Origin: Ostreococcus lucimarinus
Taxonomy: Eukaryota
Assembly (NCBI GenBank): GCA_000092065.1
Contig: CP000593.1
Strand: one strand, 5' to 3'
Length of the DNA stretch: 64,000 nucleotides
Position numbers and translations under genes: made by a program. Each line of letters begins with the position of its first letter. The stretch's first letter is position 1. Positions 1,172 through 63,297 of this stretch are shown here, piece after piece. The notes beneath the pieces were generated by a model. It saw nothing but the letters and a program-made list of their open reading frames with translations. It ran no database searches and was not told where the DNA came from.

Positions 1172-3346
1172 GTGGCCCAGCGCGCGCGCGACCGCGGCGC
1201 GCACACCCCGACGCCGCGGCGACGCGACGACGCGATGGCGAGCGCGCGAGGCGCGACGACGGCGACGCGCTCGCGCGGCGTCGCGACCGCGACGCGCGTC
1301 GCGACGCGACGACGACGCGCGACGCGGGCGAACGCGACGAACGACGCGCGCGATGGGTCGAGCAAAGCGGCGCTCGCGGCGAAGATCGCGGCGCTCAGGG
1401 CGGAGAACGAGGCGATCAAGGCGCGGATGACGACGCGAGGCGCGGAGGGAAGCGGCGCGGCGCGCGAGGGGCGCGGGGGGGGGGTAGCGACGATGCGGGG
1501 GGAGACGAAGGCGGAGGCGAGGACGACGGCGAAGGCGGAGGCGGAGGCGTTCGCGGGCGATCTTCCGAGCGCGTACGAGGGGGAATCGGAATACGGCGCG
1601 AAGGCGAAGGCGGCGGCGGCGAAGAAGGCGATGGGGGGGGAGGAGACGGAGGCGACGACGGCGACGACGGCGACGACGGATACCGCCATGTTCGCGGAGG
1701 CGTTACCGCCGCCGACGACGACGGCGCCGACGACGGCGCGACCGCCGGTGGAGAAGACGGATAATCCGATGCAAATCGTGTTCGTGTCGAGCGAGGTGGC
1801 GCCGTGGTCGAAGACTGGGGGGCTAGCGGACGTGTGCGGTTCTTTGCCGCAGGCGCTCGTCGCGCGCGGGCACCGCGTCATGGTCATCGCGCCCAAGTAT
1901 CAAAACGGCTCAAAGTCGGACGTTTTGTACGAAGGCGCGTTCGATACGTGCGTCAAGGCGAAGCTCGGATGCTTCGGTGGCGAACAAGAGGTGGGTTACT
2001 TTCATCAAATGAAGAACGGCGTCGATTACGTCTTCGTCGATCATCCGTCGTTCCACCGCAAGGGTGGACTGTACGGAGATTCGTACGGCGTGTACGGCGA
2101 CAACCAGTTCAGATTCACTTTGTTGTCCCACGCCGCGTGCGAAGCGCCGCTTCAGTTGCCATTCGCGGAGTGCGGTGGTTATTACGGACAAGACGTCGTC
2201 TTCGTCGCCAACGACTGGCACGCCGGTTTGGTACCGACTTTGGTGGCGTCCAAATACCGTCCTCACGGCGTCTACAAGGATGCGCGCACGATTTGCGCCA
2301 TTCACAACATTTTGCACCAAGGCGCGGAACCGTCGACGACGTTCCCGAACCTCGGCGTGCCGAACGAGTGGTACGGCGCGCTCGAGTACCAGTACCCCGA
2401 GCACATGCGCGCGCACGAACTCGATGAGGGTAGAGTGGTGAACATTTTGAAGGGTGCGATCGCGACGTCCGACCGCGTGTTGACCGTCTCTCAAGGGTAT
2501 GCGTACGAAATCACCACCCCAGAAGGTGGTCAGGGCATGGAAGGTTTGCTCTTGAGTCGCCAAAACCGCTTGGACGGCATCGCGAACGGCATAGACATGG
2601 ATGAGTGGAATCCGGAGGCGGATGCGGATTGTGCGGCGGCCTTTACGGTGACGGACATGTCCGGAAAGCTCGAGTGCAAACGCGCGCTGCAGAAGGAACT
2701 GGGCTTGCCGCAACGTGACGACGTGCCATTGATGGGCTTCATCGGACGTTTGGATTGGCAAAAGGGTCCGGATTTGCTCCAGAACGCGCTCCACGACATG
2801 ATGCGCGAGGACGTCCAGGTGGTGATGCTCGGCAGCGGTTTGCCCGAGCTCGAAGACTTCATGCGTTGGGCCGAGAGCACGTACCCGGACAAGTTCCGCG
2901 GTTGGGTCGGTTTCTCCGTTCCCATGGCGCACCGCATTACCGCTGGTTGCGACATTTTGCTCATGCCTTCGCGCTTCGAGCCGTGTGGCTTGAATCAACT
3001 CTACGCCATGCGTTACGGTACGTTGCCCATCGCGCACGCCACGGGCGGTTTGAAGGACACCATCACCGCGTACAACGCGTTCGGCGACGCCGACAAGGTG
3101 TTGGCGGGCACGGCCGATTACAATCAGGGCGAAGGCGTCGGCACGGGTTGGTTGTTCAAAGACATGAACGCCGATGCTCTGATGTGGGCCGTTCGTTCGG
3201 CGTGCGACGTGTATCGCTCCGAACCGAAGATGTGGCGAGCGATGCAAACGCAAGCGATGACGCAAGATTTGTCCTGGGACAACGCCGCGACAAAGTGGGA
3301 AAAGGTTTTCGAGTGGTCTAAGATCGACCCGCCGCACTGCGGTTAG
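1172..3346 (+). CDS. Soluble starch synthase (GT5 ADP-glucose glucosyltransferase), closest to the SSI type, with an N-terminal transit-peptide-like extension
   Basis: Carries the KTGGLADVCGSLPQALVARGHRVMVIAPKY motif and a C-terminal GT1 half (PSRFEPCGLNQLYAMRYGTLPIAHATGGLKDT). The VCGSLP variant favours SSI over SSII or GBSS. The N-terminal region is rich in R, A and T and has a short coiled-coil. Confidence 0.85.
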   Translation: MAQRARDRGAHTPTPRRRDDAMASARGATTATRSRGVATATRVATRRRRATRANATNDARDGSSKAALAAKIAALRAENEAIKARMTTRGAEGSGAAREGRGGGVATMRGETKAEARTTAKAEAEAFAGDLPSAYEGESEYGAKAKAAAAKKAMGGEETEATTATTATTDTAMFAEALPPPTTTAPTTARPPVEKTDNPMQIVFVSSEVAPWSKTGGLADVCGSLPQALVARGHRVMVIAPKYQNGSKSDVLYEGAFDTCVKAKLGCFGGEQEVGYFHQMKNGVDYVFVDHPSFHRKGGLYGDSYGVYGDNQFRFTLLSHAACEAPLQLPFAECGGYYGQDVVFVANDWHAGLVPTLVASKYRPHGVYKDARTICAIHNILHQGAEPSTTFPNLGVPNEWYGALEYQYPEHMRAHELDEGRVVNILKGAIATSDRVLTVSQGYAYEITTPEGGQGMEGLLLSRQNRLDGIANGIDMDEWNPEADADCAAAFTVTDMSGKLECKRALQKELGLPQRDDVPLMGFIGRLDWQKGPDLLQNALHDMMREDVQVVMLGSGLPELEDFMRWAESTYPDKFRGWVGFSVPMAHRITAGCDILLMPSRFEPCGLNQLYAMRYGTLPIAHATGGLKDTITAYNAFGDADKVLAGTADYNQGEGVGTGWLFKDMNADALMWAVRSACDVYRSEPKMWRAMQTQAMTQDLSWDNAATKWEKVFEWSKIDPPHCG

Positions 3347-3403
3347 ATATCCAATTCAGTTTTACAATATTCATGCCGCTATAAATCAACCTACAGTGTT
3401 CCA

Positions 3404-4195
3404 TCACAGCGCGCTCTTTATGACGGCCGCCTCCCCGTCGCGACATCGCGCGTCCCACACCGCGACGCCATCGTCCGCGGCCACCGCGAACTCGGGCTCT
3501 CGACCGTACACTCGTCGCGCGACCTCGATCAAAATCATCGCCGTGAGCCCCCATATCGTGCGCCCCTCGTACTCAAAGTAATGGACGCGCACGGCTGGGC
3601 GCGCCCCGTTCGGCCGCGCCCAGTCGTCGTACCGGTGACGATCCGCGCTCAGAAACATCTCCAGCGGCGCCGTGAACACCTCCGCCACCTCCTCGCGCGA
3701 GATCTCCTCCTCGCGCACGCGAAATCCCTCCCGAACCACCCCCACCACCGGTCGCACGCTCACGCGATGCCTCGACATCACCACCGGCAACCGTCCCACC
3801 ACCTCCACGTCCCTCGGCGTCCGCATCCCGATCTCCTCCCGCGCCTCCCGCGCCGCCGTGCCCGCGTCGCACGCGTCCCGCGCGTCTCGCTTCCCTCCCG
3901 GCAGCGCGATCTCTCCCGCGTGCGATCGCATCGACGTCGCGCGCGTCGTCAGCGTCACGTCCCAACCGTCGTCCCCGCGCGCCGCGAGCGGGACGAGCAC
4001 CGCCGCGCGATCGCTCCCGCGCATTCGCGCGTGCGCCGCCGCGTCGCCGTCGCCGTCGCCGTCGTCGAACAGTCCGCGCAGCGCGTCCGCGCGGCGCGTC
4101 GGCATCGTCGACGCGCCGACGCGTCGCGACGTCGCGACGCATCGTTCCATCCGTCGCGCGCGCCGTCGATCGCGCGCGCGGCGCTTTTGTATCAC
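3404..4195 (-). CDS. Nudix hydrolase of the CoA pyrophosphatase (NUDT7/NUDX15-like) type
   Basis: Has the NuCoA motif LTTRATSMRSHAGEIALPGGK followed by the Nudix box (REAREEIGM). The true start may be an internal Met (M16 or M31). Confidence 0.75.
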   Translation of the reverse strand: MIQKRRARDRRRARRMERCVATSRRVGASTMPTRRADALRGLFDDGDGDGDAAAHARMRGSDRAAVLVPLAARGDDGWDVTLTTRATSMRSHAGEIALPGGKRDARDACDAGTAAREAREEIGMRTPRDVEVVGRLPVVMSRHRVSVRPVVGVVREGFRVREEEISREEVAEVFTAPLEMFLSADRHRYDDWARPNGARPAVRVHYFEYEGRTIWGLTAMILIEVARRVYGREPEFAVAADDGVAVWDARCRDGEAAVIKSAL

Positions 4196-44255: not shown

Positions 44256-47200
44256 TTGCGCGATGACTTCCCGGACTGTTTGCCCATACGGAAACTGCCG
44301 CGGACGATTTCGAGCCGTTCGTTCGCCCGTCGCCGCACCGCGCGACGCGCGACGACGGCGACGCGGGCGCCGACGCGCGGCGCGGCGACGACGGCGACGA
44401 TGACGCCGCGCGTCGCGACGACGGCGACGACGCGCCCGACGCCGCGCGCGACGCGAGACGAGAGACGCGCGCGCGGAGGACGACGCGCGGCGGCTGCGGC
44501 GCACGATGGACGACGAAGCGACGCGATGGGACGCGCGATGACGACGCGGGGAGGCGAACGAACGACGCGAGGACGATCGACGTCGTACGATGAAGCGATG
44601 ACGACGCGGGAGTCGGGAGAGACGCGACCGAGACGCGCGGAGACGACGATGGAGGGCGAGGGCGGGTGCGCGGCGACGGCGACGCGGACGACGAACGCGC
44701 AGGGCGTGCACACGGTGTCGATCGCGCTGAAGACGCTGCCGAAGGGAGTGGCGAACGCGAGGGAGGTGACGTTTCATTGGGGGGTGATGCGGGAAAAGAC
44801 GGGGAAGACGTGGCAGGTGTTGCCGAGCGAGTTGCACCCGCCGAACACCGAATATTACAAGGGCGACAAGGCGATGCGGAGCGCGTTTCCGGTGTGGGGA
44901 CCGGTGAACTTAGTGCTCGATCCGCAGGCGAAGAGCGTCGCGTTCGCGCTGTACGTCGAAAAGACTGGAGAGTGGATCAACGCGGTCGGGGGTGGGAATT
45001 TCGAGATCGACCTCGCGGCGGAAACGCCGTCGACGGCGGTCAAAGCGGCGGCGAGCGCCGTCGAAGCGCCCGCGCCGACGCCGAAGGAGGAAATCCTGAA
45101 GACGGCGCCGAAGGTGACTGTGAAGGCGACGGCGACAGAGATGACGAGTGCACTCACCGATCCCATCGAGCTTCTCATCGCGGACATGGCTCGTGTGGAA
45201 TGGGAAGCCGTCGGACGTCCGGGCCTCGACGCCCAGACTCGGGACGACATGCTCAGGCGCGCGGCGGATCAAATCAAAAGTAAGCTCGCCGAGGGTATGA
45301 GTTTTGAGCAAATCGCGGCCGGTGACGCTAGCGTGAAGAGTGTTCCCAAGGTTGTCGCGACTGAAGCGCCCAAGGTGGTTGCGAAGACGATTGAGACGCC
45401 AATCGCGACGAAGAAGTTTTCCCTCGAGGATTTCCAGGCTGTCGCGCAGGACAGAGCGACCGACGACACGAACGTCAAGTGGAATAAACTGTACGAAGAA
45501 GGTGGTACGACGATATTCGTGGAGGCGCGAGAAGTGAATGGTAGTGGGATCCAATTACACGTCTTGGCGGACTCCAAAGACGATCTTATCATTCATTGGG
45601 GCGCGACGACGACGACGGATGGCTCATGGAAACCGCCGCCGCACGGTTTCAGCACTCAACCCTCTCGTTCATGGGCTTCCTCGGGCAGCAGTTGGGAGAC
45701 TGAGCTCGAACGCATCAGTCCCAATCTTCGAGCGGTGACTTTGGATGTGCCGTTGGATGTAAAAGCGCGCGAGGGCATCATCTTTGTGCTACGAACAACG
45801 TCAAACAAATGGATCAAGAATGGTCGAGACGACTTTTTTGCCTCCCTCGAGGGTTCGGTTCTCGAGCGTCCGGCTAAGACGGAGAAAAAGTCGGAGCGTC
45901 GCAAAGATTCCCAACAAGATCGATCGCGTAAAGAGAGCCGTAGCGAACCAGTCGTCGTCAAAGTCGCGAAGAAGGAGAAGCCTGCGCCAATCAAGCGAGA
46001 CCGCTGGGACGTCGACGACATCGCGCTCGATCAGGGCGTATTCCAAAACTTGGGCGGTTTTGTCGCGCAGGATATGGTTGACAGGATTTGTGGCGAAGAA
46101 TCGGGTGCAACACGATCTTTGATGCATCGATACAACGCTGGCGCAGACATGTTGGGCGCAATGCACGGCGCGGGCGAACCCGGACTCACCGCCCTCTTCT
46201 GTTGGTTCCGCTTCATGGCGTTGAGACAGTTGGTCTGGAATAACGATTACAACATCAAGCCACGAGAAATTAGTGCAGCGCAGGCGAGAATGACAGAGGG
46301 TCTGAGTGCGATTTACAGACAAGATCCTGAGTACAGAGACATCGTGCGTCTCATCATGGCTACGATTGGCAGAGGTGGCGACGGAGACGTCGGTCAGCGC
46401 ATTCGAGACGAGATTCTTGCCGTTCAGCAAAAGAACAACTGCAAGGGTGGAATGATGGAAGAGTGGCATCAAAAGTTGCACAACAACACGTCGCCGGACG
46501 ATGTTCCTATTTGTGAGGCGTTGCTCAAATTTATTGCGGCAGATTGCGACATCAGCGTTTATTGGGCGCACCTTCACGCCAACGGCATTGACGCCGCGCG
46601 GATGAAAGCTTACGACCGCCAAATTTGTAGCGAACCCAGCTTCTCTCGAGATCAATACGAAGGTTTGACGGCTGATTTGACCGAGTATCTTCGCACGCTG
46701 AAGGCGGTGCACTCTGGTGCTGATCTTGATTCAGCCGCAGAGGCGTGCCTCGGTTACCACCAAGATGCGTGCAAAGGTAAGGAGATCAATATTCCTCCGA
46801 TTCGTGAAGTTGCGAGCGAACGTCTGGAAGAGCTCTTATGCGCAGCGCGAGAGTTACGTTCTGAAGATCCTTTGCTCGCGCTCGAAGCGATGATTGAGGC
46901 GAGAAGATACCTTTGGACGTGGACTCGTCCCGGCGGAAAATCAAACGATCGCATCAAGGATGTCATTTATCTCGATCTTGCGTTAGAAGGTGCGGCGCGT
47001 TCGGTCATCGAAGGATCTCTTGAATCTTTGCCTACTCGAGCTCCTTACGAAGTTTTGAGAATCATGAGCCTCGTCCTCGAGAATCTTTGCATGTCTGCAA
47101 GCGGCAACCACGAGTTGCGCATTTGCCTGAAAGAGTGGCAAAATGTGCTTGAAGCAGCGAGACGCCAAGGAGATTGGGCTTTGCAGGCAAAAGCGGTGTG

Positions 47201-48833
47201 CGATCGACTGCAAAACTCGCTTGGCGAAATTTCTCAGCGCTATATTGACGCACTTCAGCCGACGGCACAGAGCATGGGAAACAAGCTCGGTGTGGATGGA
47301 CACGTGCTCGACCTGTTCTCGGAAGAAATCATCCGTGGAACTGCAGCGGCGCCACTTTCTCAAATGCTCAGAGTTCTCGACCCAGTTATTCGTAATGTTG
47401 CGAACATGGGCAGCTGGCAAATCGTCAGTAACGCCGAGTGTAGTGGCGTGATTGTTTCGGTCGCATCCCTCGCCGATGTGCAAAATGTCAAGTATTCTCA
47501 ACCGACTGTCATTATTGCCGACCGCGTTGGTGGCGAAGAGGACATTCCGGTTGGCGTGGTCGCGATCGTTACTCCTGATATGCCAGATGTGCTGTCTCAC
47601 TGCGCCGTTCGCGCCCGTAACGAAAAGGTTCTTTTCGCTACTTTGTTTGACGTGAATGTTCTAGAACAGATGAAAGCCATGACCGGGAAATCCGTGCAAC
47701 TCAAGCCGTCTGCGCAGGGCGACGATTTGCAATTCGATGTTGTCGACGGCATCATCGGTACCGACGCGGAGGTCATAGCAACATCGTCGAGCGATTCCGT
47801 TTCGAGTGACATATCGATCATCAAACGTCCGTTTCAAGGAAAATTTGTCGCCACGTCATCAGAGTTTACCCCAGAGCTTGTCGGCGGCAAATCTCGAAAC
47901 TTGCAACTCCTTCGCGGTCGAGTCTCAAACCTCATAAAGTTACCGCCGTCCGTTGCGATGCCTTTTGGTACGTTCGATGCAGTTCTTGATGTCCCTGAGA
48001 ATGCAGGCGCAAAGAGACAAATTGCAGAGTTAGTCAAACAACTTGAAGCGTACGACTCCACAGACGGCGTTGGCTTCAAAGCACTCATTGCGGAAGTCAA
48101 GGCATGTATCGCCACTTTAAAACCGACGGCCGACCTGTCGAAAAGTTTGAAAGTCGCCTTCGAAGCCGAATCACTCGGTTGGCCGGGAGATCTCGTGACG
48201 AGCGCTCAAGGTCAAAAGGCATGGAAGACGATTCTTGGCGTATGGGCAAGCAAGTACAACGAGCGAGCCGTTTTGAGTTGCAAAAAGGCAGGGCTGAATC
48301 ACGCCGATTTGTCCATGGCTGTGCTTTGTCAGCCCGTCGTTCGTGCGCGATACGCATTCGTACTGCACACAGTGAATCCACAAAACAACGACAAGAGCGA
48401 AATTTACGGTGAGCTTGTGTGTGGTCTGGGCGAAGCGCTCGTCGGTAACTTTTCTGGTCGAGCATTGTCATTCAAGACATCCAAGAGCAATTTGGATAAT
48501 CCGACCGTCGTCGGGTTCCCTTCGAAGTCAAAAGGACTTTTCATGGAGCAAGATTCACTTATTTTCCGATCCGATAGTAACGGCGAAGACCTGGAAGGGT
48601 TCGCCGGTGCGGGCTTGTACGATAGCATCACCATGGAGGAGGCAACGTTGAAAAACGTCGACTACTCCACCGACAGCCTCATTACGGACGAAACCAAGCG
48701 ACAAAAGCTTTTAGCGACCATCTCCAAGGTTGCACTAGAGATTGAGACACTTTGTGGGTCTCCTCAAGACATTGAGGGCGCGATATCTGAAGATGGGCAG
48801 CTCTACATCGTTCAAACGCGACCTCAAGTGTAG
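44256..48833 (+). CDS. GWD: Alpha-glucan, water dikinase (GWD/R1-type starch phosphorylating enzyme) with tandem N-terminal CBM45 modules
   Basis: Two CBM45-like modules (VTFHWGVMREKTGKTWQVLP... and LIIHWGATTTTDGSWKPPP...). Phosphohistidine domain PDVLSHCAVRARNEKVLFATLFD. C-terminal nucleotide-binding domain ending EDGQLYIVQTRPQV. The N-terminus is R/T/A-rich and transit-peptide-like. Confidence 0.9.
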   Translation: MRDDFPDCLPIRKLPRTISSRSFARRRTARRATTATRAPTRGAATTATMTPRVATTATTRPTPRATRDERRARGGRRAAAAAHDGRRSDAMGRAMTTRGGERTTRGRSTSYDEAMTTRESGETRPRRAETTMEGEGGCAATATRTTNAQGVHTVSIALKTLPKGVANAREVTFHWGVMREKTGKTWQVLPSELHPPNTEYYKGDKAMRSAFPVWGPVNLVLDPQAKSVAFALYVEKTGEWINAVGGGNFEIDLAAETPSTAVKAAASAVEAPAPTPKEEILKTAPKVTVKATATEMTSALTDPIELLIADMARVEWEAVGRPGLDAQTRDDMLRRAADQIKSKLAEGMSFEQIAAGDASVKSVPKVVATEAPKVVAKTIETPIATKKFSLEDFQAVAQDRATDDTNVKWNKLYEEGGTTIFVEAREVNGSGIQLHVLADSKDDLIIHWGATTTTDGSWKPPPHGFSTQPSRSWASSGSSWETELERISPNLRAVTLDVPLDVKAREGIIFVLRTTSNKWIKNGRDDFFASLEGSVLERPAKTEKKSERRKDSQQDRSRKESRSEPVVVKVAKKEKPAPIKRDRWDVDDIALDQGVFQNLGGFVAQDMVDRICGEESGATRSLMHRYNAGADMLGAMHGAGEPGLTALFCWFRFMALRQLVWNNDYNIKPREISAAQARMTEGLSAIYRQDPEYRDIVRLIMATIGRGGDGDVGQRIRDEILAVQQKNNCKGGMMEEWHQKLHNNTSPDDVPICEALLKFIAADCDISVYWAHLHANGIDAARMKAYDRQICSEPSFSRDQYEGLTADLTEYLRTLKAVHSGADLDSAAEACLGYHQDACKGKEINIPPIREVASERLEELLCAARELRSEDPLLALEAMIEARRYLWTWTRPGGKSNDRIKDVIYLDLALEGAARSVIEGSLESLPTRAPYEVLRIMSLVLENLCMSASGNHELRICLKEWQNVLEAARRQGDWALQAKAVCDRLQNSLGEISQRYIDALQPTAQSMGNKLGVDGHVLDLFSEEIIRGTAAAPLSQMLRVLDPVIRNVANMGSWQIVSNAECSGVIVSVASLADVQNVKYSQPTVIIADRVGGEEDIPVGVVAIVTPDMPDVLSHCAVRARNEKVLFATLFDVNVLEQMKAMTGKSVQLKPSAQGDDLQFDVVDGIIGTDAEVIATSSSDSVSSDISIIKRPFQGKFVATSSEFTPELVGGKSRNLQLLRGRVSNLIKLPPSVAMPFGTFDAVLDVPENAGAKRQIAELVKQLEAYDSTDGVGFKALIAEVKACIATLKPTADLSKSLKVAFEAESLGWPGDLVTSAQGQKAWKTILGVWASKYNERAVLSCKKAGLNHADLSMAVLCQPVVRARYAFVLHTVNPQNNDKSEIYGELVCGLGEALVGNFSGRALSFKTSKSNLDNPTVVGFPSKSKGLFMEQDSLIFRSDSNGEDLEGFAGAGLYDSITMEEATLKNVDYSTDSLITDETKRQKLLATISKVALEIETLCGSPQDIEGAISEDGQLYIVQTRPQV

Positions 48834-54712: not shown

Positions 54713-55986
54713 TTACATCATGCCGGTGCCCACGGAACCGACCGACCAAACGCGAATGACGTTATCGGTGTAGCCCGTGTAGAGGGTGGAACCGTCCGCC
54801 GACCATTGGAGGGAGGTGCAGTACGGTTGTTGGGACTTCTTGCCAACCGGCGGGAACTCCGGGCGGAGCTCGTCGACGATGGACTTGGATTCGAGGTCCC
54901 AAATCTTGACGCAGGACTCGGTCGCCGCGCACAACCAGTAGCGGTTGGGGGAGAAGCACAAGCCGTAAATGATGTCACCCGCATCGAGGGAGTACAATCG
55001 CTTGCCCTCGCCGAGATCCCAAAGCATGGCGACGCCATCCTTGCCGCCGGAGGCGCACAAGGAACCGTCCGGAGAGACGGTGACGGCGTTGATGTAGCCG
55101 GTGTGACCAACAAGGTTGGTGCGAATCTTGCAGTTGGTGAGGTTCCAGACCTTGACGAGCTTATCCCAGCCCCCAGACACGATGATCGGGTTGGAGGTGA
55201 CCGGGGAGAAGCGCACGCACGACACCCACTCGGAGTGCGCGTCGGCGTCTTGAATCGTGTACTTGCACTCGCCGAGCGTGTTCCACAACTTGATCGTCTT
55301 ATCCCGGGAGCCGGAGACGATTTGGCGGTTGTCCACGGAGAAAGCCACCGAAAGGACATCCTTGGTGTGTCCGACAAAGCGTCGGGTGGTGGTACCGGTG
55401 TTAAGGTCCCACAATCGAAGGGTGCCGTCCCAAGACCCCGAGAGCGCGAATTGCCCGTCCGAGGAGATGACGACGTCTTGCACGAAGTGCGAGTGTCCGT
55501 GAAGCGATCGGCGCGGGTAACCGTAGTTCTCTTCCTCGCGCGTCAGGTTCCAAAGGATCACCGTCTTGTCTCGCGAGGACGACAAGAGAATGTCAGAGTT
55601 ATCCAACGGAGTCGCGATGGACGTGACCCAGTTTTCGTGCCTGCGCGGAAATGAAAAAAACGTGTGGGTTAGTGTCGTCGTTCGACGTCGTGATCGAGCT
55701 CGTCGAGCTCGAGTCCGTTTCGCGTGAACGGTCACGCGCTCGAGACGACGCGCGTTCGACGCGTGAAATAATCATCGCACGAACGCGTCGCCGTCGTCGC
55801 GCGTCCCATCGCCGCGCGCCGCCGCCGCGAGCGTCAACGTCCGCCTCGTTCGATGGCGCAGACCCTATTCCACGAACGATCGGTTCGCCGCGCGTTCGCC
55901 GTCGACGCGACGCGACGCGCGCTCGGATCATCGATTCGCGCGACGCACCCCTTGAGCACGCCTCTGAGCTGCATTTGAGTCGCCAT
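54713..55986 (-). CDS. RACK1: RACK1 (guanine nucleotide-binding protein subunit beta-like, seven-WD40 ribosomal scaffold) with two exons, 55986..55949 and 55640..54713, and a 308-nt phase-2 intron
   Basis: Exon 2 has near-identity to green-algal RACK1/Cblp over its whole length (WVTSIATPL...[32 protein letters not shown]...). The ORF's own N-terminus does not match RACK1. A short exon 1 encoding [13 protein letters not shown] (ATG 55986..55984) ends ...AAG GG|GTGCGT, and the acceptor CGCGCAG|G restores GG+G=Gly then HENWVT. An ACTAAC branch point lies 29 nt upstream of the acceptor. Confidence 0.88.
55641..55948 (-). other. 5'-proximal spliceosomal intron of RACK1 (308 nt)
   Basis: GTGCGT donor, ACTAAC branch motif, poly-T tract and CAG acceptor. 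It is needed to recover the conserved RACK1 N-terminus. Confidence 0.8.

Positions 55987-56133: not shown

Positions 56134-56178
<45 letters not shown>
56134..56178. repeat. (GAC)n trinucleotide microsatellite, about 16 units, in the 5' region of ADA2
   Basis: cgacgacgacgacgacgacgacgacgacgacgacgacgacgacgacg, read directly. Confidence 0.85.
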
Positions 56179-56180
<2 letters not shown>

Positions 56181-56307
56181 GCGCGAGTCGCGCGTGAACG
56201 CACGCGAGTGAGCGCGCGCACGACCGTCGAGGACGCGCGCGACGGGAACGCGGACGCGGAGGTAACGCGACGCATCGGCATCGGCGTTCGGCATCGCATT
56301 CGGCGCC

Positions 56308-57954
56308 ATGGCGAGCGCGCTCGTGCCGAAACGGCGACGGGTGGCGACGGAAAACGCGATGACGAAGCTGAGTGGGAACGGGGAGTCGTGCGCACTGTTT
56401 AACTGTAACTATTGCCAAAAGGACATCTCGAACGTGGTGCGCGTACGGTGCGCGGAGTGCGCAAACGTGGATCTGTGCACGGAGTGCTTCGCGGTCGGCG
56501 TGGAGCCGCACCCGCACAAGGCGTATCATCAGTATCACGTCATCGACAACATGTCGTTTCCGCTGTTCACGCGAGATTGGGGGGCTGACGAAGAGTTGTT
56601 ATTGCTGGAGGCAGTGGAGATGTTCGGGTTGGGGAACTGGACCGAGGTGAGCGAACACGTCGGGACGAAGACGCGCGCGCAGTGTCACGCGCACTATTTT
56701 GAAGTCTACGTCAAGTCTCCTTGCGCGCCGTTACCGGATATGTCGAAGATTTTAGGAAAAGGCGTCGCGCGTATGACATCAGACGAGCTCAAAGCGGAGG
56801 CGGAGCAAAAGGCGAACGAAAATAAGGATGTGGAGGAGGAGGAGAAGCTTCTCGAATCGCTTGCTAACCCGAACGCAGTGAAGACGGAGGGCAACGTGCA
56901 GGAACTCACAGGTTACAACATCAAGCGCAATGAGTTCGATCCCGAATACGACATGGATGCCGAACTTCCCCTGGCGGAGATGGAATTTCGCGAAAACGAC
57001 ACCGAAGAAGACGTCCAGATGAAGCTGCGAATGATTGAAATCTACAACAGCCGGCTTCAAGAACGAGCGAGAAGAAAACAATTCATTCTCGAACGCAATC
57101 TGCTGAACGTGAAAAAGCAACAAAACGTGGAAAAGAAGCGTTCACAATACGAGCGCGACTTACACGGCACCATGCGTATATTTGCACGCTTTCTCACGAG
57201 TACCGAGTACGACGTCTTGCTCGAGGGTCTCGCCGCGGAGCACCGAATCCGAACCCGCATCACCGAACTGAAAGAGTACAGACGCAATGGTATTCATACC
57301 ATCGCAGAGGGCGAGGATTACGATTTGGAGAAGCGTCGTCGTGAGACGGAGTTCGCTCGTCTACACGCGATCGAGCATCCAACTAGCAAGAACATAGCCA
57401 GAGCGAACAAGTTCATCGTGCGAGATGCCACACAAATCAATGAGCAGTTGACTCGCATGAACGACGAAGACAAGACGGTATCCGTGATCCCGACGCCTCG
57501 TACGTCGAGCTTAGGTCCTCGCCGTCGAATGTACTTGTCACTTGATCTCGCCGATCTTCCAGGCGTAGACCTTTTGAACGACGACGAAAAGGAGTTGTGC
57601 AGGAGCTGTCGCTTATTGCCTGTGCAGTATCTCTCGATGAAGGTGGAGTTGATGCGAGAGGGTCTCAAGTCCGAAAAGCCGCTCAACAGAAATCACGTTC
57701 GGAATATGTTCAAAGTAGACCCACTCAAGGCTATTCGTGTGTATGAGTTACTCCTACAGCACGGCTGGGTGTTGGAAGACGGCTTCGTGAACCCAGGTGA
57801 GGATGAAGACTCCGAACCTGCGCCGAAAAAGTCAGCCAGCGCAGACGAGGAGGAAGACGAGGAGGACGATGAAGTAGATTACGAAACCGACGATAACGAC
57901 GAAGACGAGGACGAGGAAGACGACGAGGAAGAGGATAGCGAGGAAGACGATTAG
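56308..57954 (+). CDS. ADA2: Transcriptional adaptor ADA2 (ZZ zinc finger, SANT/Myb and SWIRM domains)
   Basis: ZZ finger CNYCQKDISNVVRVRCAECANVDLCTECFAVGVEPHPHKAYHQY. SANT domain WGADEELLLLEAVEMFGLGNWTEVSEHVGTKTRAQCHAHY. C-terminal SWIRM-like region LLNDDEKELCRSCRLLPVQYLSMK. Acidic tail. Confidence 0.85.
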   Translation: MASALVPKRRRVATENAMTKLSGNGESCALFNCNYCQKDISNVVRVRCAECANVDLCTECFAVGVEPHPHKAYHQYHVIDNMSFPLFTRDWGADEELLLLEAVEMFGLGNWTEVSEHVGTKTRAQCHAHYFEVYVKSPCAPLPDMSKILGKGVARMTSDELKAEAEQKANENKDVEEEEKLLESLANPNAVKTEGNVQELTGYNIKRNEFDPEYDMDAELPLAEMEFRENDTEEDVQMKLRMIEIYNSRLQERARRKQFILERNLLNVKKQQNVEKKRSQYERDLHGTMRIFARFLTSTEYDVLLEGLAAEHRIRTRITELKEYRRNGIHTIAEGEDYDLEKRRRETEFARLHAIEHPTSKNIARANKFIVRDATQINEQLTRMNDEDKTVSVIPTPRTSSLGPRRRMYLSLDLADLPGVDLLNDDEKELCRSCRLLPVQYLSMKVELMREGLKSEKPLNRNHVRNMFKVDPLKAIRVYELLLQHGWVLEDGFVNPGEDEDSEPAPKKSASADEEEDEEDDEVDYETDDNDEDEDEEDDEEEDSEEDD

Positions 57955-58072
57955 CATGAGACGTTTTCTCCTCATTAGATTTTACAGTGCTGTAGTGACA
58001 TATGACGGGAGTCATTTATTATTAATTTTTTCCCCAGCGTAGAAGCGATCGCCCCGTGCTGCCTGTCGTCTA

Positions 58073-59590
58073 CTACGTGAATTTCACTCTGTTTTGAGGG
58101 TCCATGCTTTCTTTGATTCCACGATACACCAATCCAAGCGAACGGCCTGCGTTAGAGAGAGTAAGTCGATGCACAAAATAATTAATTTCAAACGCACCAA
58201 TTAATGTCACCAGTAACCAAGAAGCCACCCGGCTGCAGTTGTTCAGTGCGCTTCTGAACAAGGGAAGGCTCACATCAGCGAGTTCTATTATCATAGAAAC
58301 AGCTAAACGAAATCCCTTCACCTTTGCGAGCTCTGGCTGGCGACAAACGTGAATTTTCCTCGTCACGAGCTGTGTGAAAAATAATTAATTTCAGCGACAA
58401 ATTAAAAAATTAATTCAAACGCGCCGTCGCGCGGAGATACGTACCTCGCCGTTTGCATTCATGCCCCACAATTTATGCCAATCTTCGTACATCGCGACCA
58501 CGTCGTAATAATTGCGTGCAAGCCACGTGCGCAATGATGTTTCATTTCGAAATTTTTCCAACGAACGTGTGCTCTTCAAGCGAACGCTCAACGCGTCTCT
58601 GAACGGTGGAATGCGCACGACCGCTCCTGTGTCCTCCGTACGTGCGACTCCACCATTTACAGGCGCTTGTAGCCCGCTTTCACGCGCACACGTCACGTAA
58701 GCACACGCCACGGAGTCGGCAATATTTAATACCACGTCCTGCAAAACCGAAACGCACACCGAAGCCATAGGAGAATTGAAGAATTCCAGCACCGGTTCGA
58801 CGTCTTGAGTGTTAATTTTCGTCGATTTCTCAACGACTTGAACGCTTTCGGAAATATTGTCCGTTCGATTGGAGTTCTGCGATGATTGAAATAATTCAGA
58901 ATAATTAAATAAATATTTGTGAAGCTCAGCGAAAGTTAGACGTACCTTGGCCAAATACATCATCACTCCGGCATACAAAGCCATCTTACTTCCTTCAAGT
59001 ATTTCTCCTGTGAAAAACGCGATCAGCTCGGTCGAAGACGAAAGCGAGATCATACGTACCGTTCTGCCAAATTTTTTCATCGGCCACGTCTCCGGCCACG
59101 CGAACCACCCGAGCGCACCGCTCCTTGGCGCCGATGTCAAGCGCCATCGAATTCATCCAATCATTCGCGGAGACCCTAGCCACTGTTTGAATGAGTTCAC
59201 GCAAGCTTCCGTTGCTCTCTTCTATGTTCTCGAGCCCTTCTTTAAGCGCCAAGAGCACCACCCCTATGAGTTGTGCCCTGGCGCCGTCGTTGAGCGCCTG
59301 CAATTCAAGTTGCGGGGACGTGCCTTCTACCCCGCGTGAGTCCCACCAACCAATCGCTACGACGTCGCCTCCGACACCAGCTAACCCTTGACCCGCGGCG
59401 TGGAATATATCATCTCTTCCCGCGTCGGGCTTAAGCAAACTCTCCACGCGCGCCTGGGTGAGCTCTGCGGCTCGCGTTCTCGAGTTTGTCTTCGCGGCGT
59501 CTAACGACTCGTTTTCCCGCTCGATTTCGACAGTATCGTCGTGTCCAAGCAGTATTGGTAACGCCTTCGATGCCTACGAATGAAAATAAA
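58073..59590 (-). other. Probable intron-containing protein-coding locus of unknown function on the minus strand. Only ORF fragments are seen (59447..58995, 59140..58415, 58366..58073); the exon structure is not resolved.
   Basis: Local drop in GC with frequent in-frame stops, which is unusual for this window. Yet three minus-strand ORF fragments have protein-like, non-repetitive composition (for example LIAFFTGEILEGSKMALYAGVMMYLAKVRLTFAELHKYLFNYSELFQ). Confidence 0.3.
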
Positions 59591-60262
59591 TCGGTCAGCC
59601 TCAATCTTCGTCGCGTTTGCGCTCGTTTGCTTCACCGAGAGCGTGCGGCGAGAGGCAACAAAACCACTCTTGACATCGCTCTGTCGGCGCGCACCGATCG
59701 ATTTTAGGTCCGAATCTCGCGCTTGTCGATAACGTACCCTTTGAACGAACGTCTCCAACCCGTTTCTCGCCGCGTCGACGAGATCGACGCCGATTTGCGC
59801 CCGTCGAACCGTTTCTAACCTGCTCCCGCCGCGACGCCCACGCCATCCTCGGCGCGCCGTCGGTGCGCTCGCGAGCGATCGCGACGACGTCGAAACCGAG
59901 AGCATGTTCGTGTGGACGCTTTCGCAAATTTCGCCGCGCGCTGTGACGCGCGCGCGGTCTCGCGCTCTGGTTCGGCGCTTCAACGGTCGCCACGAACGTC
60001 GCTTCGTTCGCGCGCGCGGCGCGCGGGGGCCGACGCGGCGTTTATCGCGCGCGTACCGTGTTTGCAGATAGTTCTAAATTGTCTTTGAGTGCGTGATTTT
60101 TCGACGACGATTTCGTAGGGTTGCGCGCCCTCGAGACGCCCACGAAATCGCTCGACGCGCGTTCGTTTTGGCGTTCGTTCGTTCGAAATCGACTCGACGC
60201 GCGTCCACGTCGACCGCGCGCGTGATCGGCGGTGCGCCCGCAGACGGACGCGCGCGGCGCGC

Positions 60263-61312
60263 GTGCGGACGAATATCATGCACGTCACCAACGTCGGCGG
60301 TTCGTTAACCACCGCCGTGTGTCTGTCTCTCATCGCCTGGTCCGTGCGCGTCTTGCGAAGCGCCAAGCACAGAGATCGAGCGAGACAGCGAACGACGTCG
60401 AGCTCGCAACCGACGGTGAAATTGAACAAACAGACGTACGGGGTGCTGAGTGCGAAAGCGTTTTGGATGTTGGTTCAAACGAAACCGGTGAAATACTTGC
60501 TATTAGACGTCAGACCGAAGAGCGAGGACGGGGGGGCGACGGCGGTGACGAAGCTGAGCGACAGACTCGCCGTGACGCACATCTTACCGGAAGAGTTGGC
60601 GAACTTGTTGCGCAATCGTAACACACTGTGGAAGAAGAGATTTCCAAACATTCCCGTGCCGAGTTTAAGGACGACGATGATTTTTGTGAGCACGCACGGG
60701 CATAGCTCGTCGCACGCCGCGGCGCTCGCGACGAGCCTGGGATTCACGCGGTGCTCCATCGTGGACGGCGGACTCGCCGCGGCGGTACCTCTAGCACACT
60801 TCGACGAACCCGCTGTGTTTTCATCAGGGAAAGATCGAGCTCTGAGCTTCGACGCGGTGTTACTTCTCCTGGAAACGGTGAGAGACGACGGCAATGCGCT
60901 GGGACTAGTGATTTTGGACATTCGAAGGTTTGACGAGCGCGCGCTTTACGGAACACTCGAGGGGTCAACGCACGTCCCGGTGGATCATCTGCCCAAAGCA
61001 GTGCATATGAACGATGAAGAGTGGGTGCGGATGTTCCGATTTCACAAGCCGACGTCGGATAATCTCATCTTGTTGCATAGCCGAAGCAGTAGTTCCGCGG
61101 CGTGGGCGAAGCAGCTGCTTTCAGACGCCGGTTTGCACAACTGCCATTCTTACGTCGACGGCGCGTATGCCGGTCCTGATGGGACTTTAAGAAGTTACGA
61201 GGCATACGAAGAGGGTGGTGCACCCCCGGAGCCGGTGAGTATCGGACAAAGTGTGACGTTTAATCGAACGAGCGCCGAGCGAGAGTTGCTCAACTTGAGA
61301 ATTCGTGTGTAG
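60263..61312 (+). CDS. Tandem rhodanese-like domain protein with both catalytic cysteines replaced (non-catalytic, TROL/STR-like)
   Basis: Two rhodanese-fold units (YLLLDVRPKSE...IFVSTHGHSSS and LVILDIRRFDERALYGTLEGSTHVP...LILLHSRSSSSAAW). The active-site loops have Ser/His where the Cys would sit. N-terminal hydrophobic anchor. Confidence 0.7.
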   Translation: MRTNIMHVTNVGGSLTTAVCLSLIAWSVRVLRSAKHRDRARQRTTSSSQPTVKLNKQTYGVLSAKAFWMLVQTKPVKYLLLDVRPKSEDGGATAVTKLSDRLAVTHILPEELANLLRNRNTLWKKRFPNIPVPSLRTTMIFVSTHGHSSSHAAALATSLGFTRCSIVDGGLAAAVPLAHFDEPAVFSSGKDRALSFDAVLLLLETVRDDGNALGLVILDIRRFDERALYGTLEGSTHVPVDHLPKAVHMNDEEWVRMFRFHKPTSDNLILLHSRSSSSAAWAKQLLSDAGLHNCHSYVDGAYAGPDGTLRSYEAYEEGGAPPEPVSIGQSVTFNRTSAERELLNLRIRV

Positions 61313-61431: not shown

Positions 61432-63297
61432 CTAATTGATGGCTGGCGAAAGTTGCGGGTTCGCGAACTTCGGAAGTAAAACGTCGTCGATTTGCTCCGC
61501 CGTGCCCATGTCTCTGACGAATTTCCAGAACGCGACGAAAATGCCGGGAAGTGTTCTGTATGACGAGTAAGGAATGCCCATCTTCGCCGCTTCTTCCGCG
61601 ACAATTTTCGCGATCGCGGGGTAGTGCACAAAGCAAATCGCCGGGAACAGGTGATGCTCGACTTGCAAGTTCAGACCGCCGGTGAAAAAGTTTCCAATCT
61701 TTCCACCCCAGTCAGCGCTAGTCACCAACTGCTGCACGCCCCAATCTCTTTCCCACGCCTCTCCACCGGTATCTTCAGGGAGTTTGGCCTCGGGCACGTT
61801 GTGACTCACCGCGAACGTACACGCGAGGACGACTCCTTGGCACGCCATGAAACCGACGATGCCGGCGACGACGGCGGAAGCCGCGTGGCTCATCAAAGGT
61901 GCAGCCAACAAACCGAAGTGCACAAACTTGCCGATAACTACGGTGGCAAGTTCCCAAGTGGTCGCCCCGTGGAGCTTTGCGCCTTCGGTATCGCGAGTGA
62001 ACAAACCGACGATGTCGCCGACTTGGAACGCCACCTGCAACAACGGAAAGGCCAAGAACATGTACCAGTGCTGGAAGCGGTGGTACCACGCCTTGGGACG
62101 ACGAGCGTCGAAACGCAAGAGAGGCATGGCGGTGTACACGTCTTGATCCATAGCATTGTCGTTGCAGTGAATGTGGTGGCTCACCTGGTGGTGGTATCGC
62201 CACATCAAAGACGAGCCGCCGATGAGATCGTTCGTCAAACCGAGGACGCCGTTGACGGCGGGCGACGGTGACATCGCCCCGTGATTGGCGCAATGCTGAA
62301 TCGTGAGCCCGATCCACGCACCAGCTAAGCCAAGGAGGCAACCCGAGAGAAAGCCCGGGATGGTGGCGTACACACCGTACGCAAACGCGGCGAAAGACAA
62401 AATCGTTATCGTCGCGTGGTCGCCACCCATTCTGTGTTTGTTCTTCCCTTCTTCCGGGAAAAGTTCCTCGCGAACGCGATTGCGGATGTTGTTGTACAGC
62501 GGCGAATCGTTCGGTCTCGGTGACTTCGCCACGGCGTCGACCGGGAACCCCTCGAGCTTGGGTAACATCCTGAAGCGCGCCGTCGCCACCTCTGGTCGCA
62601 AGTGATAGGATTCCATGAGCGCCGTGCAGTCGCGACCGATGGCGAGGTTCAACAACCAGTTCCCGCCCGGATGCTTCTCAAAGAACGGTCCGAGGTCGTA
62701 CGCCACGTCTCGAAACACCGTCCACTTCACCTTTTGCCACTTCTCATCGTTCCACGGATCCTCCATCCCCGGCGCCGCGACGTCCGGGCGCGGCAACCTC
62801 AGCGCCTCGCGTCTCGCCTCCAGGGACATCATCTTCTCCCCCTCCTCGCCCTCGACGCTTCTTTCGACGACCGCGGCGTTCCCTTCGCCCTCGATCGATC
62901 GCGGAACGATCGCATACCTCCCCGATCGCGCGCGCCGCGCGTCCGCGCGCACCGCGCTCGTCGTCGCGCGCGTCGTCGTCGCTCGACGGCGATAATCACA
63001 CCTCGCGCTCGACGTCGTCGTCGTCGCGAACGCGCGCGCGACGGTGCGCATGGCGGGCTCGATCGCTCGGCGCGGATTCGTGGCGTTCGGATCCGTCTCG
63101 GGCGCTTCGCGCGTTCGGGCGTTCGAGCGCTCGCTGTCCCGGACGCGCGCTGTGACGAGCCGACGCGACGACGCCGACGCGACGACGCCGCGCGCGGATC
63201 GGATCGCGTGACGTCGGTCGGGGCGCGTCGGGCGTCGAGGGACTCGTTCTCGAGTCGAGACTCGTCGATGGGATCGGTGTGGTCCGTGTGTATCCAT
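61432..63297 (-). CDS. Front-end fatty-acid desaturase with an N-terminal cytochrome b5-like domain, preceded by a long transit-peptide-like extension (alternative start at 63051)
   Basis: b5-like domain VFRDVAYDLGPFFEKHPGG. Histidine boxes HCANHGA, WRYHHQVSHHIHCN and QVEHHLFP (the Q-x-x-HH box is diagnostic of front-end desaturases). Several TM helices. The first ~150 codons are S/R/T/A-rich. Confidence 0.85.
   Translation of the reverse strand: MDTHGPHRSHRRVSTRERVPRRPTRPDRRHAIRSARGVVASASSRRLVTARVRDSERSNARTREAPETDPNATNPRRAIEPAMRTVARAFATTTTSSARCDYRRRATTTRATTSAVRADARRARSGRYAIVPRSIEGEGNAAVVERSVEGEEGEKMMSLEARREALRLPRPDVAAPGMEDPWNDEKWQKVKWTVFRDVAYDLGPFFEKHPGGNWLLNLAIGRDCTALMESYHLRPEVATARFRMLPKLEGFPVDAVAKSPRPNDSPLYNNIRNRVREELFPEEGKNKHRMGGDHATITILSFAAFAYGVYATIPGFLSGCLLGLAGAWIGLTIQHCANHGAMSPSPAVNGVLGLTNDLIGGSSLMWRYHHQVSHHIHCNDNAMDQDVYTAMPLLRFDARRPKAWYHRFQHWYMFLAFPLLQVAFQVGDIVGLFTRDTEGAKLHGATTWELATVVIGKFVHFGLLAAPLMSHAASAVVAGIVGFMACQGVVLACTFAVSHNVPEAKLPEDTGGEAWERDWGVQQLVTSADWGGKIGNFFTGGLNLQVEHHLFPAICFVHYPAIAKIVAEEAAKMGIPYSSYRTLPGIFVAFWKFVRDMGTAEQIDDVLLPKFANPQLSPAIN

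Follow-up and report, generated by a model that had tools for sequence, protein, structure and literature searches.

The DNA studied here is a stretch of 64,000 nt from contig CP000593.1 of Ostreococcus lucimarinus (assembly GCA_000092065.1; hereafter the window, whose positions are used throughout). Between the plus-strand genes for ADA2 (56308-57954) and a rhodanese-domain protein (60278-61312), both confirmed by Pfam, the minus strand carries a gene whose coding sequence runs from 59905 to 58073 in six exons separated by five introns and whose spliced product is 473 amino acids (aa) long. Together with its 5' untranslated region (UTR) the gene covers 60221-58073, and we interpret it as a transcribed, spliced nuclear Ostreococcus gene for a DUF3685 or "Ycf55-like" protein, an explanation to which, taken as a whole, we give a probability of roughly 85%. 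The initial annotation had seen at 58000-59600 a stretch of lower GC without a long clean open reading frame (ORF), in which three minus-strand fragments suggested a multi-intron gene, hedged as a possible pseudogene or foreign insertion and left without a family. It had placed the gene correctly but closed it too early, the gene starting about 300 nt beyond its right edge (exon 1 at 59905-59738, 5' UTR to at least 60221).

The 5' UTR (59906-60221, minus strand, as for all features of this gene) is at least 316 nt long and contains no upstream ATG; it was recognized from L001, a 3,653-nt Logan contig from the public run SRR28369099, whose nt 1-316 aligned to 60221-59906. All six exons were drawn from both the model and L001. 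Exon 1 (59738-59905, 168 nt) starts with the ATG at 59905 and encodes residues 1-56. It is followed by intron 1 (59574-59737, 164 nt, 53% GC), which opens with AGG|GTACGT, carries GGCTGACC 25 nt upstream of the 3' splice site and closes with TCGTAG. Exon 2 (59060-59573, 514 nt) encodes residues 57-227 and leads into the phase 1 intron 2 (59008-59059, 52 nt, 50% GC), which reads ACG|GTACGT ... CTGAT ... CACAG. The 62-nt exon 3 (58946-59007) comes next, then intron 3 (58877-58945, 69 nt, 30% GC, phase 0), which is in-frame and stop-free and has no counterpart in L001. The match to Pfam DUF3685 starts at residue 345, within exon 4 (58445-58876, 432 nt, residues 249-392). Intron 4 (58370-58444, 75 nt, 37% GC, phase 0) reads GAG|GTACGT ... 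CTGAA ... CACACAG. Exon 5 (58198-58369, 172 nt) ends at residue 449 and is separated from exon 6 by intron 5 (58147-58197, 51 nt, 37% GC, phase 1; TTG|GTGCGT ... CTCTAACGCAG), again in-frame and stop-free. Exon 6 (58073-58146, 74 nt) includes the TAG stop codon at 58075-58073.

Several observations led to this model. On the minus strand the ORF fragments end at G|GTACGT (59737, 59059, 58945 and 58444); a pyrimidine tract with CAG or TAG is found within 52-164 nt of each donor, and the frame of the next fragment is restored there. L001 aligned to 60221-56158 in six collinear blocks at 99.8-100% identity, and the gaps were exactly the five introns. As the gaps of L001 coincide with the five predicted introns, only spliced RNA fits. 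The multi-intron gene that had been proposed as probable was thus borne out, its five introns restoring a single frame and all being missing from an otherwise identical RNA-derived contig, and the transcript alignment suggested by the initial annotation as a check gave a collinear match lacking all five. The 473-aa product is identical to the database protein P0001, which itself comes from L001. P0003, an independent transcript-derived MMETSP ortholog of 473 aa, and 23 further Mamiellophyceae orthologs are free of insertions across the five junctions. Intron 5 was revealed by ortholog comparison: it interrupts the invariant block SWLLVTLIG|RSLGLVYRGI and is missing from L001, from P0003 and from all Micromonas-like orthologs. 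A five-exon model of 490 aa that kept this in-frame 51-nt intron was dropped on that comparison; the match to DUF3685, at 52.1 bits with the intron, reached 68.9 bits without it. The exon-intron structure, the expression and the splicing of the gene can be regarded as established.

Introns 3 and 5, at 69 and 51 nt, have lengths divisible by three and contain no stop codon, such that their retention would add 23 or 17 residues and not trigger nonsense-mediated decay. The corresponding introns of O. tauri measure 88 and 52 nt. This in-frame property is probably accidental, as it is not conserved in O. tauri.

A computed profile confirmed the lower GC of 58000-59600, which has 49.7% where the window as a whole has 60.4%; no more than 1.6% of the 1.6-kb windows reach so low a value. 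The low-GC tract is wider than first described, extending from about 56.5 to 59.2 kb and taking in the 3' half of ADA2. No long clean ORF was found in the segment, in agreement with the earlier description, and its three minus-strand fragments correspond to the ORFs 58995-59447, 58415-59140 and 58073-58366. Exons 3 and 4 appeared there as one 241-aa ORF because intron 3 is in-frame and stop-free. The low GC and the stop-rich appearance would stem from four small introns, of which introns 3-5 are AT-rich, together with a below-average GC in the 3' exons. A second low-GC stretch (~46300-48300, 50-52%) lies wholly within an unbroken ORF of 1,477 aa (44400-48833, plus strand), so low GC alone is no sign of introns in the window.

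The initial annotation could assign no family to the product, but Pfam PF12452 (DUF3685, a Ycf55-like family) matches residues 345-461 with 68.9 bits (E = 6.3e-19), well above the gathering cutoff of 25 bits and spanning model positions 73-188 of 192. On the basis of this match we take membership in the family to be established. An NCBIfam scan of the algal protein gave no match. A search of 1.84 billion proteins with a profile built from 25 Mamiellophyceae orthologs returned 489 cluster representatives (E <= 1e-3), and in all 20 representatives scanned DUF3685 was the sole domain. The named relatives are called "hypothetical" or "uncharacterized" and come from green algae (Chloropicon, Myrmecia and Apatococcus), streptophyte algae (Closterium and Spirogloea) and land plants (Marchantia, Riccia, Adiantum, Coffea and Apostasia); an Anthurium member is the exception, being titled "Ycf55-like protein". 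No secondary domain recurred among 34 family members, and word-indexed searches for further named homologs returned no characterised member.

The cyanobacterial members of the family are built differently, as they join a NarL-class receiver to DUF3685 where a helix-turn-helix (HTH) output domain would usually stand. Alignment with hhalign of the algal protein to cyanobacterial Response_reg+DUF3685 proteins paired residues 142-467 with 283-572 (98.1% probability, E = 8.8e-14); almost all of the mature algal protein is thus the counterpart of the module that follows the receiver. This profile alignment establishes the homology of residues 142-467 to the post-receiver region of the cyanobacterial NarL-class regulators. 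No Response_reg match was found in the Ostreococcus protein or in 19 other eukaryotic members (20 representatives scanned), whereas the cyanobacterial members carry one. The plastid ycf55 of red-lineage algae has been described as a divergent CheY-like regulator whose terminal DUF3685, common to it and the cyanobacterial regulators, was hypothesised to be an effector domain (PMC4226036). Plastid-encoded ycf55 is known from red algae, haptophytes and cryptophytes, and two further papers report its presence as variable. The DUF3685/Ycf55-like family is distributed over cyanobacteria (fused to a receiver), red-lineage algae (plastid-encoded) and the green lineage (nuclear, from picoalgae to flowering plants). 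Ostreococcus, which is transformable and in whose loci seen here the gene is single-copy, would offer a convenient knockout system for it.

O. tauri and three Micromonas-like loci keep the gene order desaturase-rhodanese-DUF3685-ADA2, and a fourth locus (L047) holds DUF3685 and ADA2 only. The gene has been inherited vertically with conserved synteny. In O. tauri, introns are found at all five homologous positions, with the donors GTGCGT, GTGAGA, GTGCGT, GTGAGT and GTGCGT, and the spliced product is again 473 aa; the introns of the two species are 62-77% identical and the GC dip is common to both. Four other Mamiellophyceae-type orthologs are single unbroken ORFs of 63-72% GC, and the four introns of the Closterium homolog all lie elsewhere than those of Ostreococcus. 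The introns of Ostreococcus hence look lineage-specific, although a single wholesale loss in the sister lineage may be the alternative. Other Ostreococcus orthologs share 68-71% identity with the protein, and its C-terminal block does not vary among the 25 Mamiellophyceae sequences.

Two public annotations of the gene can be corrected with this model. The NCBI "predicted protein" of O. lucimarinus CCE9901 (P0006, 275 aa) agrees exactly with the C-terminal end of the 473-aa product but lacks the first 198 residues, encoded by exon 1 and most of exon 2. The "hypothetical protein BE221DRAFT_205744" of O. tauri (P0002, 581 aa), the ortholog at the syntenic position (KZ155784.1, L002 6001-8131), keeps the 52-nt intron 5 and then runs into a spurious Ser-rich tail; correct splicing gives 473 aa. 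The gene had been deposited before, N-truncated in NCBI and at full length in a public assembly-derived set (P0001), and its family is a known DUF. What our analysis adds is a transcript-verified model, the two corrections, and the observation that the intron richness and the low GC are Ostreococcus-specific at a syntenic locus. Apart from its unusually many introns for this genome, the locus is an ordinary gene that will not surprise a specialist.

The N-terminus of the protein, encoded by exon 1, is rich in Arg, Ser, Thr and Ala, poor in acidic residues and resembles a transit peptide. Besides P0001, six orthologs were checked, and their N-termini are likewise rich in these residues, with 6-11 Arg and 0-4 acidic residues in the first 30-50 positions. 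This composition, together with the cyanobacterial/plastid ancestry of the family, suggests import into the chloroplast, and we consider it somewhat probable that the N-terminus is a transit peptide sending the protein there. In the scenario that we propose, the gene would descend from a cyanobacterial/plastid ycf55 that moved to the nucleus in the green lineage, and the protein, having no phospho-receiver, would act in the plastid as a constitutively "unplugged" output module. Its output would most plausibly pass through protein-protein or membrane-surface contacts of the near-invariant basic, Gly-rich C-terminal helices (STRSLEKFRNE; IGRSLGLVYRGI). That the protein works by such contacts, rather than as a phosphorylation-controlled switch, is a weakly supported guess that we find possible and hold tentatively. 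In the AlphaFold model (mean predicted local distance difference test, pLDDT, of 64, with core blocks at 70-92) the protein consists almost wholly of helices, also in its N-terminal half, which shows no alpha/beta fold; there is one beta-hairpin (381-399), and a long C-terminal helix (412-464) bears the invariant Gly/Arg-rich motif. A Foldseek search of the model against the PDB returned nothing at E <= 0.001, and a sequence-profile search of the PDB gave only noise (best E = 0.15).

Other functional leads were followed and set aside. A C-terminal transmembrane anchor is not claimed, the best Kyte-Doolittle value being 1.59 and the stretches being broken by charges. A structural resemblance to PRAT (Tim17-like) proteins was too weak to serve as a functional clue. 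An FtsH protease gene adjoins the Response_reg+DUF3685 gene in one cyanobacterial locus; in a tblastn search of 33 cyanobacterial-type loci, FtsH was recovered only in the two contigs of that organism, and this link was also dropped. Directly upstream of the Response_reg+DUF3685 gene, a same-strand ORF of 600-790 aa was present in 18 of the 33 cyanobacterial-type loci (for example at L018 1518-3878, L013 1960-3798 and L029 1670-3940, plus 15 more). It matched no Pfam or NCBIfam family and gave no functional clue. From its position it may be a conserved operon partner of the regulator gene.

Stops in every frame of the unspliced sequence and a locally low GC would also be expected if the locus were a pseudogene, a decaying copy in which the stops and frame changes are mutations and not intron boundaries. 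We give this next to no credence, as each frame break is a GT[A/G]CGT...YAG intron whose removal produces one 473-aa ORF, spliced RNA exists, and the identity to the Ostreococcus orthologs and the conserved C-terminal block described above do not fit a decaying copy; with an intact and expressed ORF whose C-terminus is near-invariant across Mamiellophyceae, the hedge made in the initial annotation can be withdrawn. Its other hedge, that a foreign (horizontally acquired) or mobile insertion lies behind the deviant GC, draws on a GC about 10 points under the window mean and on the report that low-GC outlier regions of Mamiellales are enriched in putative horizontal gene transfer (HGT) genes (PMC3491373). 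This is just as hard to believe, given that the gene has the same position and orientation in O. tauri and the three Micromonas-like loci, with L047 retaining the ADA2 side, and that homologs occur across the whole green lineage and in cyanobacteria. In addition, the low-GC tract extends into ADA2, covering its 3' half, and the flanks showed no repeats of note. A further possibility is that the gene truly belongs to the compartment of the "big outlier chromosome" (BOC1) and carries BOC1-type introns, which are described as shorter than 75 nt, below 43% GC, without conserved signals and restricted to that chromosome (PMC3879977). Introns 3-5, at no more than 75 nt and below 43% GC, match in size and composition: introns 3 and 5 fall within both limits, intron 4 is exactly 75 nt and introns 1 and 2 are too rich in GC. 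Five introns are also far above the ~0.15 per gene found outside BOC1 in Bathycoccus (PMC3491373). However, GC reaches 60.4% in a window tiled with ORFs that have no introns, the locus shows collinearity with Micromonas, a feature that BOC1 lacks (PMC3491373), and strong GT[A/G]CGT donors (in all five introns) and CTRAY motifs are seen here where BOC1 introns lack conserved signals. As the NCBI protein is moreover located on a contig of 321,799 bp, we regard membership in BOC1 as very improbable.

It is also conceivable that the gene is the one described here and its function another, the product being an integral or peripheral organelle-membrane protein with a Tim17/Tim22/OEP16-like (PRAT) helical bundle and not a signalling-derived module; this seems unlikely to us. 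Some points weigh against our interpretation of the locus as a spliced nuclear gene for a plastid-targeted Ycf55-like protein. The RNA-seq nature of SRR28369099 was deduced from the structure of the contig and not from metadata, and plastid targeting is a compositional argument. Some cryptophytes and haptophytes can seemingly dispense with plastid ycf55, so that its function is not necessarily an essential one. Localisation or functional data for any DUF3685 protein were not found in the literature searched, which, for DUF3685, Ycf55 and PF12452, consisted of plastid-genome annotation papers only.

The neighbourhood of the gene is compact. Its stop codon is separated from that of the convergent ADA2 by 118 bp (57955-58072), and L001 carries on antisense through ADA2 (nt 1664-3653); the 3' UTRs of the two genes probably overlap or abut. 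At the other end, about 56 bp (60222-60277) lie between the 5' end of L001 and the ATG of the divergent rhodanese gene, a spacing that implies either that the bidirectional promoter region is very compact or that the 5' UTRs overlap. Beyond these flanks, Pfam identified a cytochrome-b5 fatty-acid desaturase (61432-63297, minus strand) and a RACK1-like WD40 gene on the minus strand (ATG at 55986, spliced product of 321 aa). The latter has one canonical intron (55641-55948) of 308 nt and 65% GC, the only other intron that we found in the window, with a GG|GTGCGT donor, an ACTAAC branch motif and a CGCAG acceptor. The initial statement that the other loci are intron-poor therefore holds in so far as long unbroken ORFs of up to 2,108 aa tile the rest of the window, but has to be qualified for this gene. 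In the interval from the RACK1-like gene to the start codon of ADA2 there is a (GAC)16 trinucleotide microsatellite (~56134-56181), from which the listed pseudo-ORFs of poly-Arg, poly-Ser and poly-Val arise.

An AT-rich stretch of 15-22 nt, GCGTTTGAA(A)TTAATT(A/T)TTTT, is common to introns 4 and 5 and has been conserved in O. tauri. The 64-kb window contains three copies of the motif AATTAATT(A/T)TTT where 0.04 would be expected, and 0 of 100 shuffles reached three; two copies are in intron 4, one is in intron 5 and none is outside these introns. Within the O. tauri locus of 14 kb, GAA(A)TTAATT is confined to the homologous introns (L002 7485-7561 and 7734-7785), and no further copies of the shared stretch were found in the window or in that locus outside the homologous introns. 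The motif could reflect shared ancestry, a splicing or regulatory element, or the trace of an intron duplication. One of the two introns could even have been copied from the other, in an introner-like spread within a genus thought to lack introners. More broadly, the Ostreococcus lineage might have gained the five short introns, four of them AT-rich or small, and the local GC drop in situ, at an ancestral syntenic position outside the big outlier chromosome, possibly with copying between introns 4 and 5. The four intronless orthologs, the differing positions in Closterium and the confinement of the motif to introns 4 and 5 speak for such a gain, to which we nevertheless give only a small chance. 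If true, the locus would illustrate, as a small case from nature, how a "BOC1-like" gene architecture arises.

Compared with the intron classes known from these algae, all five introns are of the GT-AG type, with four GTACGT donors and one GTGCGT, CTGAC, CTGAT, CTGAA or CTAAC motifs and polypyrimidine/YAG acceptors, which places them with the canonical Mamiellophyceae introns (AG|GTGCGT donor and NCTGAC/GACTGACG branch point; PMC3879977). They share with that class the GT[A/G]CGT donors, the polypyrimidine tract, excision, and a CTRAY-like motif 19-25 nt before the acceptor in introns 1-4 and 9 nt before it in intron 5. They differ in that four of the five donors are GTACGT and not GTGCGT, introns 2-5 are only 51-75 nt long and introns 3-5 are AT-rich (30-37% GC). 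Five introns in one 1.8-kb gene are also many for a class described as having "a few per gene" (PMC3879977). With BOC1 introns they have in common small size, AT-richness, a multi-exon host gene and a locally lower GC, but the splice signals are conserved and the context is not BOC1-like: the window has intronless neighbours besides its high GC, and its gene order is shared with Micromonas-like genomes. The gene is thus atypically intron-rich, with introns of BOC1-like size and composition, yet its context and splice signals set it apart from the genes of BOC1. As for the product, it shares with Ycf55 and the cyanobacterial regulators the DUF3685 match and the motifs STRxxE(K/R)FRN and IGRxxGLxxRGI. 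In contrast to them, the algal gene is nuclear and has spliceosomal introns, and its protein begins with a transit-peptide-like N-terminus and has neither a receiver nor a phospho-acceptor region.

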